From positions 30,506 to 94,505 of the forward strand of contig JAJEAL010000076.1 of the NCBI GenBank assembly GCA_022822785.1: 64,000 nucleotides of DNA. The letters run 5' to 3'. Under the pieces are notes generated by a model. It worked only from the letters and a program-made list of their open reading frames with translations. It made no database searches and had not been told where the DNA came from. Position 1 is the first letter of the stretch; each line of letters starts with the position of its first letter. Position numbers and translations under genes: made by a program. Shown piece after piece: positions 51,812 to 54,660 of this stretch. The stretch is from Candidatus Poribacteria bacterium (GTDB taxonomy: Bacteria > Poribacteria > WGA-4E > PCPOR2b).

Positions 51812-52201
51812 ATGATGTTTGCAACAAAAGGGCGGCTGAAGGTCGCATTGTTGGTTGTTGGGGTATTGGTGGTTAGTTTAGTAATATTTCAACCGACCCA
51901 CGGTCAAAGTGGTGATACTGTAGTAGAGACAAAGAGGGGCTCTTATAACACGACGACGAGTAAAAAGGTTCAGGAAGGGCCTACGATACATTACACGTGC
52001 TCTGTTTGCGGGCAAAGCACCTCCGATTCAACATATCGCACCTACTATTTCTATTGGCGCGTGACGTATTACGCCAAAAGATACGAAAAGCGAGGCTGGG
52101 TCACGGTGTGGCAAATTAACACACTGTTAGACTCATGGAAGGGCGGTTTAAGTGGTGGAGGCTCGCCTTGCGGTTGTTATATGGTTCATGGTGGCGGATA
52201 G
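51812..52201 (+). CDS. Small secreted or membrane-anchored Cys/Tyr/Trp-rich hypothetical protein
   Basis: GGGAG ribosome-binding site, a signal/transmembrane segment RLKVALLVVGVLVVSLVIF, CSVCGQ and CGC cysteine pairs, and a Gly-rich C-terminus. Confidence 0.5.
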   Translation: MMFATKGRLKVALLVVGVLVVSLVIFQPTHGQSGDTVVETKRGSYNTTTSKKVQEGPTIHYTCSVCGQSTSDSTYRTYYFYWRVTYYAKRYEKRGWVTVWQINTLLDSWKGGLSGGGSPCGCYMVHGGG

Positions 52202-52234
52202 ATCATCTTAACACAACAAACAAGGAGGATTATC

Positions 52235-53179
52235 ATGTTTAACCGTTTGTTCGCCTTATCAATCGTCGTAATGCTTATTCTGTTCGCTGGCATTGGTTAT
52301 TATCTTTATCAAGAACATACCAAAGAGATAATTCCATCGTGGAACGGCCTTGAAATTAACGAAACTTCGAATGTAGCTAGGCTTAATGGTCAATTCGATA
52401 AAAAGCTGCTGTCCGTTGAGGTGCCAAGGGAACCTCCCCCGACAGATAGATGGGAATATAAACCGCAAATCCAACAACCTGCTGCCACGGAAGAATTTGT
52501 TGAAATCCCCATCGATCAAATAGAGTTTCGCGAAATTACAACCCCAGACGGCAAAGTTCATTTAGCCCCCTTCCCAAAAGGGAGTCCACCCATTGAAGGG
52601 GGGTATGTCAGTTATCCGGAAGAAAATGAAAAACTGATTACCCCTAACAGTTACTTTGTGTTTGAGAATGTACAAGTCCCCGAAGGGGAAAACCTAGAAG
52701 ATTATCAGGTGAAAACGCTTTTAGCTGCCGCACATGGCATTTCGATGGAAGAGGTCGAAGCGCAGTTAAAACAAGGGACGCTGACATATACTATAGAACC
52801 GTCTAACGAGAATTGGACTGATGGTATAGAAGGCGCGGCGGAACTCATAGATTTCCTAATAGACGCGGGGGCATCGGATGATGCAATAGATGCAACCTTT
52901 GACTCACTTGATTTATCAGAAAAACCTACGAGCTCAGCTGCCGAGGTAACCGAGAAAAGTCAGGCTGAGGTTCCGGTTGCTCCGTCAGGCATACCCGAAG
53001 CAGTCAAGTCCATAGCACCGGAAGCGGTCAACTCTAAACCCACTCCGGTTAAAAAAGAGTCGGAACCAAACAAGAGTGAGGTCGAAGAGCACGAGATGCC
53101 AATGGAGGAACAACGCCCGCCGGAACGGCCTCGTCGGTTACGGACGCCCCCTGCTCCGTCTGTACCGGAGACACCGTAA
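52235..53179 (+). CDS. Membrane-anchored hypothetical protein (paralog 1)
   Basis: N-terminal transmembrane helix. It shares MFN..., YQEHTK, TPDGKVH, PEGENLEDY and GISMEEVEAQLKQG with the ORF at 53527, and has a P/E-rich acidic-basic tail. Confidence 0.55.
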   Translation: MFNRLFALSIVVMLILFAGIGYYLYQEHTKEIIPSWNGLEINETSNVARLNGQFDKKLLSVEVPREPPPTDRWEYKPQIQQPAATEEFVEIPIDQIEFREITTPDGKVHLAPFPKGSPPIEGGYVSYPEENEKLITPNSYFVFENVQVPEGENLEDYQVKTLLAAAHGISMEEVEAQLKQGTLTYTIEPSNENWTDGIEGAAELIDFLIDAGASDDAIDATFDSLDLSEKPTSSAAEVTEKSQAEVPVAPSGIPEAVKSIAPEAVNSKPTPVKKESEPNKSEVEEHEMPMEEQRPPERPRRLRTPPAPSVPETP

Positions 53180-53222
53180 GAACCTAACATCGAACAATAA
53201 TGACAAGCTAATGGTCAATATA

Positions 53223-53255
53223 AGCCCCTCGCTCTATGCGGTGGGGCTTTTTTTG
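53223..53255 (+). terminator. Rho-independent terminator
   Basis: aagcccctcgc...gcggtggggctt hairpin followed by a T7 run. Confidence 0.6.
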
Positions 53256-53526
53256 AACTGAAAGTAGAAAATTATGATTAGAACTATAAAAAGCAATGGA
53301 GATAGGCAATTGGCTGTAAAAGCCTGTCTGCTTGATTCTAGAGTGCCTGAGTGTTTGATAAAAATGTATATGGGTTATGAGACTTGTAACGGTGTTCCGC
53401 CAACTGTAACAGCAAAACTGAGAGAGATGTGAAGTGCCAGGAACCCGGACAGTTAAACCTTTCAACTTTTATTACCAGCATTACGAAACTAATAGCCTCG
53501 ACTGTAATGGCAATTAGGAGGTTATC

Positions 53527-54660
53527 ATGTTTAACTATCGTTTTGTCCCCTATCTCATTGTGGTGGGCATCGTTGCGTTGCTTTCGGTCTGCTACGTCGG
53601 TTATAGGAAATATCAGGAGCATACCAAGTTCGAGGTGTTTATGTCAAAGGTTCAAGTGACCTTAGATAACGACACGAGCTCACCAAAGCAGACGGAAGTT
53701 CAGCCGCAAAGGAACGAGCCAGCAACAACTACCCGGGAACGGATAGATGTCTCTGCTCCTCCTATACAAGTGGGAGTCCATTCAAAGGAGGAAGAAGCGG
53801 AGTTTGAGTCGATAGACTGGTCAGAGATTTCGCCAGAATTACGGGCGAAATGGGAGCACTTTGATCCGGGCCCCATGACGCTACAACGTATCCAGACCCC
53901 TAACGGAAACGTGCATTTCATCGAGCTGCCTGCGGGGATTGATTATGGCGAGGTAGATATTACGGTATCAGAAGATATGACGAGCCAACCTACATTCCCT
54001 CCTACTGGCTCGTTTGCTGAAATCGTATCGGTTCAGAAATCGGATATTCCTGAAGGGGAAGATGTCGAGGAATATATTTATAAAAAGCGATGGGCGTTGT
54101 TCCTCGGTGTCTCTGTCGAAGAAGTTGGCAAACAGATAGACCGTGGCCATCTCCCACCTCGCCCTTCCATCATCGAGCGGACGCCTGTCATCGAGTTCCC
54201 TATCGATGAACTTATTGGTAATGACAATCACTCCGGAAGCGCTGTGAGTGTGGACGAGGCACAACGAAGTGGGGAATATCGAACAGAAGTCTCTGTGTCT
54301 GATGGGGGGCTCTCTGAAGATACACAGCGAGCCTCGGTTCCCGCTGATATCCCGCGCTCTCCGTCAAATCTATCCGGCGTGCTTGAACCTTCCCGCCGCA
54401 GTATGACAGGCGGAGAGAGAACAAAAACACCCACTCCATCCACAGCCAAAAGCATTGAAACGCAACTCCAAAAGCGGTTATCACCAGAGCGTTTCAATAA
54501 CGCGCAACAGTTGATAAACCAGTACGGTGCAGAGGAAGGGCTTCGTCGGCTGCGGGAGTCTGATCCGGAAGCGGCTCGGCGGTTTGAACGGGAGCGTCGT
54601 CCGGTGCCTTCCCGTAATGCACCTGATGGGAGGCAATCGGAATCAGGATCGAAGGATTAA
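53527..54660 (+). CDS. Membrane-anchored hypothetical protein (paralog 2)
   Basis: Paralogous to 52235-53179, with the same motif order (YQEHTK, TPNGNVH, PEGEDVEEY, GVSVEEVGKQIDRG). Confidence 0.55.
   Translation: MFNYRFVPYLIVVGIVALLSVCYVGYRKYQEHTKFEVFMSKVQVTLDNDTSSPKQTEVQPQRNEPATTTRERIDVSAPPIQVGVHSKEEEAEFESIDWSEISPELRAKWEHFDPGPMTLQRIQTPNGNVHFIELPAGIDYGEVDITVSEDMTSQPTFPPTGSFAEIVSVQKSDIPEGEDVEEYIYKKRWALFLGVSVEEVGKQIDRGHLPPRPSIIERTPVIEFPIDELIGNDNHSGSAVSVDEAQRSGEYRTEVSVSDGGLSEDTQRASVPADIPRSPSNLSGVLEPSRRSMTGGERTKTPTPSTAKSIETQLQKRLSPERFNNAQQLINQYGAEEGLRRLRESDPEAARRFERERRPVPSRNAPDGRQSESGSKD

Follow-up and report, generated by a model that had tools for sequence, protein, structure and literature searches.

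We analyzed a 64,000-nucleotide (nt) window of DNA from a Candidatus Poribacteria bacterium (contig JAJEAL010000076.1) and found that the three genes at positions 51812-54660 form two tandem two-gene cassettes. Each cassette pairs a gene for a small, predicted exported protein with a gene for a large, membrane-anchored partner. We call the small gene S and the two large genes A and B, and we refer to the family that contains A and B as Big. The first cassette is complete and consists of a promoter, a structured leader RNA of ~212 nt, S, and A. The second has lost its leader and nearly the whole of its small gene, leaving a 28-codon remnant in front of an intact B. The initial annotation, made from the sequence alone, had grouped S, A, and B as a single three-gene module. 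Comparison with related loci indicates instead that the widespread unit is the pair of one small and one Big gene, not the paralog pair plus one small gene.

All three genes lie on the + strand: S at 51812-52201 (129 amino acids (aa) in the list of open reading frames (ORFs)), A at 52235-53179 (314 aa), and B at 53527-54660 (377 aa). These coordinates and lengths, and the sequence motifs that the initial annotation had listed, are real. S and A are separated by 33 nt, and a scan of the interval between 52201 and 52235 found no terminator-like site. A ribosome-binding site (AAGGAGGA, 52222-52229) sits 5 nt upstream of the A start codon. Because no hairpin separates S from A, the two genes are likely co-transcribed and coupled in expression. 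The junction between A and B is different. It spans 347 nt and contains an intrinsic terminator at 53227-53255 (dG -21.8 kcal/mol, followed by a T7 run) together with the small-gene remnant. Thus, S, A, and B do not form one uninterrupted unit. The same DNA is present in ENA and Logan assemblies of one metagenome series.

The small+Big pair recurs in dozens of paralogous copies. Using a hidden Markov model (HMM) of S-like proteins, we found that S-like ORFs of 83-164 aa end ~0-110 nt from the Big gene in most full-length cassettes. An adjacent S-like ORF was detected for 39 of 68 non-redundant genes that encode a Big-family protein or the C-terminal module of that family (C-module, described below), including most of the full-length ones. 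The initial annotation had named a paralog pair widespread without the small protein as evidence that would count against its module; we saw the opposite, with Big genes usually accompanied by a small gene. The two members of each pair also share a history. Across 26 cassettes, similarity among mature S proteins correlated with similarity among Big cores (Mantel r=0.80, permutation p=0.0002), a correlation that owes part of its strength to orthologs in different genomes and with which the deeper subfamilies also agree. The nearest cassette was identical for both genes in 17 of the 26. These results demonstrate that a small gene and its Big partner are inherited together and diverge together.

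The genes surrounding orthologous cassettes show that A and B travel separately. In the closest genome (locus L004), A and S are 92% and 91% identical to the window copies, respectively. There, the S-A pair is followed by an unrelated gene of 218 aa and preceded by another small+Big pair (131 aa and 447 aa). Orthologs of B occupy a different neighborhood, downstream of a peroxidase gene (L061, L062, and L063). The small gene in front of these B orthologs is found in different states: L061 has a leader and an intact gene of 127 aa, L062 has a truncated gene of 58 aa, and L063 has none. The window contains a similar trace. Directly upstream of B, at 53431-53514 (+ strand, frame 2), lies a stretch of 28 codons ending in ..EVPGTRTVKPFNFYYQHYETNSLDCNGN and a stop. 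In a small tblastn search it matched the C-terminus of the S-like protein from L016 with 50% identity over 28 aa (E=6e-7). The DNA is 72% identical to L016 over 99 nt, the L016 Big protein is 51% identical to B, and stop codons lie 5' of the remnant. The remnant sequence indicates that B formerly had its own small gene, which has since been lost.

Loss of the small gene does not appear to relax selection on the partner. The ratio of nonsynonymous to synonymous substitution rates (dN/dS) for Big genes was 0.31-0.38 with or without S, and a comparison of two S-less lineages gave 0.34. Big genes are therefore under purifying selection even where S has been lost. We also observed damaged cassettes elsewhere. 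The S ortholog in front of the A ortholog in L005 (7586-7941), L006, and L007 carries one and the same frameshift. Its presence in three independent assemblies makes a true pseudogene more probable than a sequencing error. Big genes are split by frameshifts in L009, L042, and L052, and in L013 (3242-3889) one cassette is interrupted, between its small gene and its Big gene, by a gene for an insertion sequence (IS) transposase of the IS5-like DDE type.

The family appears to be confined to one phylum. We scanned one genome per species, 185,579 species in all, for a sequence pattern; the 52 loci recovered all belong to metagenome-assembled genomes (MAGs) of Candidatus Poribacteria. An exhaustive profile search of 1.84 billion representative proteins yielded only 387 relatives; for B, a separate count gave 204 homologs. 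On a single 5.08-Mb contig (CBDBMC010000001.1), 11 loci together contain at least 16 Big-family genes, often arranged in tandem. A search of viral contigs found no relatives of the family.

A and B are true paralogs, as first proposed. BLASTP aligns them at 28% identity over ~210 residues with E=2e-10, so their similarity is not due to chance. Both begin with MFN, a transmembrane (TM) helix, and YQEHTK, and both contain the motifs TP(D/N)G(K/N)VH, PEGE..E.Y, and G(I/V)S(M/V)EEV. A matches the Big-family HMM with E=4e-59 and has 33 orthologs at 56% identity or more. Family alignments (A1 and A3) give a consistent order of parts. The N-terminal end consists of MFNRRF, the TM helix, a juxtamembrane YxGYRxYQxHxEF motif, and a variable linker. 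The conserved core follows (QRVxTPDGKxH..VPxG..EG ... IPEGEDxExY..K....GVSxEEVE.....G.L.), and after it a variable acidic and Ser-rich stretch that leads to SDxPxSPSDL. The C-terminal block is near-invariant: LSPERFDKAQQLIDQYGTEEGLRRLRExDPEAARQFERERRPVPSRDVPDG.QSESGSKD. B is a typical member and ends in LSPERF..AQQLI.QYG.EEGLRRLRE.DPEAARRFERERR. A has an N-in signal anchor, an alpha/beta core (TPDGKVH ... PEGE..Y ... GISMEEV), and a tail rich in P/E/R residues in which the C-terminal module survives as a degenerate version; the more distant A orthologs P0014 and P0024 keep the block. An AlphaFold2 (AF2) model of B, built from a 67-sequence alignment, has a mean predicted local distance difference test score (pLDDT) of 69. 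It contains a long helix and TM anchor (residues 4-48), the alpha/beta core (80-206, pLDDT 70-92), a disordered acidic and Ser-rich region (218-303), and four helices at the C-terminus (307-357, pLDDT 82-93).

The C-terminal module is not limited to Big proteins. It also ends otherwise unrelated Poribacteria membrane proteins, some of them polytopic, and we observed it (..FDKAQQLIDQYGTEEGLRRLRE.DPEAARQFERERR) at the ends of P0205, P0210, P0231, P0240, P0271-P0273, and P0280. By our reading of the sequences, three of these proteins (P0240, P0272, and P0273) have five TM segments each, and the positive-inside rule puts their C-modules outside. Basic residues precede the hydrophobic segments of both S and Big. 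Because of these residues and the outside placement of the module in the three polytopic proteins, A and B are predicted to be type II membrane proteins (N-in, C-out) with a periplasmic body. The C-module, which has no Pfam entry, behaves like a periplasmic domain for docking or sorting that these proteins share, and it probably docks to a common envelope component.

S encodes a protein with the hallmarks of export. S homologs begin MF(A/V)TKGRL, and the annotation of L001 also starts at the second ATG. The homologs place the true start of S probably at this second ATG (51815), giving a protein of 128 aa. The N-terminus carries a Sec-type signal (MFATKGRLKVALLVVGVLVVSLVIF) with a probable cleavage site near THG|Q, which would leave a mature part of ~98 aa. 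Across the S family, an A-x-A site follows the hydrophobic core in 13 of 25 sequences and G-H-G occurs in most others, consistent with cleavage by signal peptidase I. S is thus predicted to be exported by Sec and to have its signal cleaved. S lacks the G|F-x-x-x-E motif of a type IV pilin signal, the lipobox Cys of a lipoprotein, and the RR motif of a Tat substrate, and we rejected these three assignments. Together with the N-in signal anchors of A and B, these features agree with the initial view of all three as uncharacterized envelope proteins.

The mature part of S contains CSVC (residues 63-66), a Y/W-rich core, CGC (residues 119-121), and an HGGG end. An AF2 model (pLDDT 72, from five aligned sequences) shows the signal helix followed by three long antiparallel strands (37-62, 69-91, and 95-114), with the CxxC at the turn between strands 1 and 2 and the CGC near the C-terminus. 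This model suggests that S folds in the periplasm as a three-stranded beta meander, in which the CxxC turn and the C-terminal Cys pair would staple the protein through disulfides or a metal. A word-indexed search for S relatives returned four matches, and ~30 divergent S-like ORFs were found 5' of Big genes. The S-family alignment (A4) conserves the CxxC, an HxH column, a Trp, and a C-terminal C-x(1-4)-C-(G/N)(G/N). The S gene itself is conserved (dN/dS 0.26 relative to its L004 ortholog).

We searched widely for known families among these proteins. The initial annotation recognized no family for S, A, or B, and this judgment held: Pfam, NCBIfam, PADLOC, and PHROGs gave nothing on the three. 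Pfam and NCBIfam gave nothing above threshold on ten other S-type proteins, and Pfam gave nothing on the 67 Big and 25 S alignment members or on ten proteins that have only the C-module. PDB sequence profiles returned nothing below E=0.1 for either family, and no fold match was found for any of the proteins. The weak fold neighbors of S are G5 single-layer sheets and pore or barrel proteins, and S did not qualify as a member of the G5-domain fold. A literature search on secreted, Cys-rich, or paralogous proteins of Poribacteria found nothing relevant.

S-like proteins share their beginnings and differ in their mature parts. The N-terminal signals are related across cassettes (MF.TKGRLKVALLVVGVLVVGLGMY...A.A), and the signal region is near-identical among S-like proteins whose mature parts are 15-36% identical or unrelated. 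Behind the common leader and signal we distinguished at least four unrelated mature types: a beta-meander with CxxC..CxxxxCGG, a short type with 6-8 Cys, a GYGHYYNYH type, and a coiled-coil or helical type. This arrangement resembles prochlorosin/Nif11-type precursors of ribosomally synthesized and post-translationally modified peptides (RiPPs) and conotoxin superfamilies, in which paralogs combine a near-identical N-terminus, conserved in DNA and upstream, with divergent Cys-containing mature parts. The S-like proteins differ from those families in their hydrophobic Sec signal, in place of a Nif11/NHLP leader, and in their folded mature parts of 60-110 aa. We found no RiPP modifying enzyme or C39 transporter near the cassettes.

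The complete cassette begins with a conserved, structured RNA. A scan identified a sigma-70-like promoter at 51564-51592 (+ strand; TTGACA, 17 nt, TAGAAT; 11/12 matches), from which transcription is expected to start at ~51598-51601. The same promoter aligns in L020, L011a, L061, L019, and L023. Conservation begins just 3' of the promoter and thereby defines a leader of ~212 nt at 51598-51809 (+ strand; nhmmer score of 220 bits at the window copy). The initial annotation had described a candidate regulatory RNA that fences the gene set from upstream; this RNA is the 5' part of the cassette itself. Full-length copies occur 21 times in the loci (e.g., L020:2094-2309, L011:3329-3542, and L013:8252-8475), and the small exported proteins encoded behind the leader fall into at least four unrelated types. 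Downstream of each lies a gene for a Big-family protein or for a different protein with the C-module. Over the ~330 nt in front of S, identity to the DNA preceding S-like genes is 73-89%, whereas the proteins of those genes are only 15-36% identical to S. Conservation of the DNA extends into the first ~26 codons of S, with identities of 0.68, 0.74, and 0.64 at codon positions 1, 2, and 3.

The predicted fold of the leader suggests how it may act. It contains three hairpins, P1 (51603-51631), P2 (51633-51665), and P3 (51669-51693), and an intrinsic terminator (51734-51780) whose A and U tracts pair and whose loop (GATTTGAG) is almost invariant. A predicted long-range helix pairs 51710-51721 with 51793-51804 and covers the Shine-Dalgarno (SD) sequence GGGAG as an anti-SD. 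In RNAalifold-based pair counts, 97.1% of the cells in the leader helices were paired, compared to 42-59% in slid controls, and five pairs had changed on both sides. Covariation thus lends moderate support to the fold, limited by high sequence conservation. We rejected the possibility that the leader is a small ORF; frames are interrupted in the window and substitutions keep the helices. The leader is predicted to hold expression off by means of its intrinsic terminator and the pairing that covers the SD sequence. It resembles attenuator and riboswitch leaders in being a promoter-proximal structured RNA with an intrinsic terminator and an SD-covering pairing, and in being far better conserved than the coding sequence behind it. 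Unlike the known examples, it occurs in many copies per genome that evolve in concert, and a cmscan of 51000-55300 against the 4227 families of Rfam gave no match at E<=1. Two leader patterns had no exact match in JGI metagenome contigs.

Other upstream elements were observed at related loci. Leader copies carry one of two alternative upstream blocks, either the sigma-70-like TTGACA/TAGAAT seen in the window or TGGTTTC.....TTTCTGATCAAGG. The latter resembles a sigma-54 -24/-12 element with one mismatch (e.g., L016:3327-3370 and L004:7320-7360; columns 1-60 of alignment A6). In L004, a gene for a PAS/sigma-54 activator lies directly 5' of the cassette with the sigma-54-like block. A second class of conserved non-coding sequence precedes small genes that lack the first leader type (L012:3236-3600, L050, L027, L026, L043, L017, and L054). 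Members of this class are 80-95% identical over ~50-150 nt in most pairs and over ~350 nt among L017, L026, and L043.

The 3' end of the cassette is conserved at the DNA level as well. The interval 54476-54760 (+ strand), which comprises the last ~185 nt of B, encoding the C-module, and ~100 nt of flank, includes an intrinsic terminator at ~54708-54753 (fold energy -28.0 kcal/mol). Paralogous Big genes from other genomes (L016, L020, L013, L010, L011, L035, and L038) match it at their 3' ends with 82-89% identity. The cassettes therefore consist of conserved 5' and 3' arms around a variable center. Leaders evolve in concert within a genome: five leaders from one MAG, which belong to five different cassette types (L004:4567-4790, L004:7355-7576, L013:2316-2538, L013:5903-6127, and L013:8252-8475), are 90-96% mutually identical, yet between the window leader and its counterpart in that MAG, at the head of the orthologous cassette, identity is only 69%. 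This pattern suggests either gene conversion or co-evolution with a genome-specific trans factor.

The explanation that best accounts for these observations as a whole, which we put forward tentatively and at somewhat below an even chance, is that Poribacteria carry two-gene envelope cassettes, each encoding a payload and its tethered partner. S-type proteins might be variable exported payloads, effector- or bacteriocin-like, and Big might be the cognate membrane-tethered periplasmic partner that binds the payload and retains or neutralizes it in the manner of an immunity protein; we have low confidence in both assignments. A Big protein could stay useful after the payload gene in cis is lost, like orphan immunity genes, and the leader, through its attenuator and anti-SD, would keep the cassette silent until a signal arrives. 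We favor this guess because it would explain the gene order, the coupling, the co-divergence, the diversity of payloads, and the orphan partners. The cassettes resemble polymorphic toxin-immunity and bacteriocin cassettes (orphan cdiA-CT/cdiI, rhs-CT, and class II bacteriocin operons) in that a variable payload comes after a conserved export region, the cognate partner is directly downstream and co-diverges with the payload, there are many copies per genome, orphan partners persist, and conserved flanks could permit cassette exchange. They differ in having no recognizable toxin or immunity domain, in using a Sec-type signal in place of a double-glycine leader or a carrier of type 5, 6, or 7 secretion systems (T5/T6/T7), in having partners that are all homologous, large (314-480 aa), and built from conserved modules, and in that orthologous payloads are conserved.

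Several of these differences, and some features of our analysis, weigh against the payload and partner explanation. Unrelated toxins normally have immunity proteins that are themselves unrelated. The Big partners are all homologous and are built from the same conserved N-terminal, core, and C-terminal modules, a sign of shared activity and not of specific binding alone. We identified no toxin, bacteriocin, or immunity family in S, A, B, or the ten other S types. The Sec signal would bring S to the periplasm only, and we saw no route for export across the outer membrane beside the cassettes; neither a C39 ATP-binding cassette (ABC) transporter nor a T5/T6/T7 carrier was present among the neighbors. 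Orthologous S genes are conserved, not hypervariable. Finally, topology and signal cleavage were assigned by rules of thumb, not by a predictor or an experiment, and the structural model of S relies on its five-sequence alignment.

A broader version of this idea takes in the arms of the cassette. We regard it as possible, if on the unlikely side, that Poribacteria have an undescribed cassette system. Its common 5' arm would supply the promoter, leader, and signal codons, and its common 3' arm the docking module and terminator. The variable center would comprise an exported small protein of many unrelated folds and the variable part of the partner. Arms homogenized by gene conversion, swappable centers, and one signal at the RNA level would make the cassettes a co-regulated, recombining repertoire of effectors and partners.

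The most serious alternative to a payload with its tethered partner is that Big is a private periplasmic chaperone or escort, an anchored steric foldase or carrier like Lif. In this view, S would be folded by its cognate Big protein and then passed, by way of the C-module, to common machinery for export or assembly. The lipase-specific foldase Lif is encoded downstream of lipA, and the two gene pairs are laid out alike: the gene for a secreted client is followed, with tight spacing, by that for an anchored periplasmic partner of ~300-450 aa with an N-terminal anchor, a linker, and folded domains. Co-divergence of the pairs fits this model, and so does the homology of all partners, as would be expected for a common activity on diverse clients. 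The fate of partners after client decay argues the other way. A private chaperone should be useless without its client, yet Big remains intact and equally selected where the small gene has decayed (B in the window, L062, and L063), and in this survival without a client Big differs from the lipA-lif system. The clients here are small Cys-containing proteins of several unrelated types, and Big resembles neither Lif (Lipase_chap, PF03280), in sequence or in fold, nor any other chaperone family. Export machinery is not encoded nearby. We therefore consider a chaperone function unlikely.

Selection on Big in the absence of S is easier to accommodate if Big has a function independent of S. Big might be an envelope tether with a periplasm-spanning layout like that of TonB, TolA, and ZipA, whose C-module docks to peptidoglycan or to an outer-membrane component. 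S proteins would then be accessory beta-rich subunits that oligomerize at or in the outer membrane, and the paralogs would provide surface variation. A single N-terminal TM anchor, a long disordered P/E/S-rich spacer, and a conserved terminal domain match this layout. The C-module is common to several otherwise unrelated membrane-anchored families, S is predicted to form long aromatic-rich beta strands, and its weak neighbors are G5 sheets and pore or barrel proteins. The resemblance stops at the layout: Big lacks the domains of these proteins, has an extra alpha/beta core, and is paired with a small exported protein. Neither TonB_C (PF03544), for which Pfam gave no match, nor a known anchoring domain was found in Big. 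The NCBIfam TonB match (E=0.56) covers only the P/E-rich tail, and all TonB and ZipA matches were compositional with E>0.05. Nothing places S at the outer membrane. This tether model seems to us a shade less probable than a chaperone.

The cysteines of S raise the question of metals. S-type proteins could be Cys/His metal binders that are tethered or served by Big in periplasmic metal handling, with a possible tie to genes in the window. Directly 5' of the cassette, at 44431-51495, are genes for a TonB-dependent receptor (TonB_dep_Rec), ExbB, a TonB_C protein, a tetratricopeptide repeat (TPR) lipoprotein-like protein, and an ABC permease (BPD_transp_1). The CxxC, the HxH column, and the C-terminal Cys motif are conserved in alignment A4. 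An A-x-A|H junction, which predicts a mature N-terminal His, occurs in 7 of 25 sequences, and the four Cys may be placed as in zinc ribbons. However, the S protein of the window has neither the HxH motif nor an N-terminal His, and several S types lack such motifs. The zinc-ribbon matches (RPA12, PDB profile E=1.4-5.1, and PaaD) are weak and far below threshold. Since the neighbors of other cassettes are unrelated, the TonB-type neighborhood in the window is probably coincidental. A role in metal handling is therefore improbable.

The grouping proposed in the initial annotation, a dedicated envelope or secretion module in which S, A, and B act together, has very little left in its favor. The genes are adjacent on the same strand, and the identical arrangement is present in two other assemblies of the same organism (L001 and L002). 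Neither L004, the closest other genome, nor any of the 52 Poribacteria loci has the triad, A is cut off from B by a terminator plus the remnant of a pseudogene, and orthologs of B lie elsewhere, one of them (L061) with its own small gene. Equally improbable is a selfish or decaying repeat family without cellular function, whose arms would reflect recent spread and gene conversion: concerted evolution of the leaders within a genome, frequent frameshifted or truncated copies (L009, L042, L052, L005-7, and L062), and the IS element in one cassette are what such a family would leave, but dN/dS values of 0.26-0.38 for S, A, and B between genomes, ORFs that are intact across MAGs from different samples, RNA helices kept with compensatory changes, and the lack of a transposase, integrase, or inverted-repeat boundary at the cassettes or of copies on viral contigs all speak against it.

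Poribacteria are an uncultured group in which most lineage-specific genes lack an assigned function. The parts of the cassette belong to no family described in the resources we searched, and their likeness to effector-immunity, client-foldase, and attenuator systems is one of analogy. Even so, three hypothetical ORFs become a defined unit: a co-evolving gene pair, a shared, predicted periplasmic C-module, and a multi-copy leader RNA. The layout of conserved arms and a variable center offers a natural case in which to study gene conversion and cassette exchange in a bacterial chromosome. If the pairs are sets for effector and immunity functions or for envelope variation, they would account for much of the interaction between these bacteria and their competitors, phages, or sponge hosts, and the leader would then represent a new class of riboregulator with a ready-made regulon.

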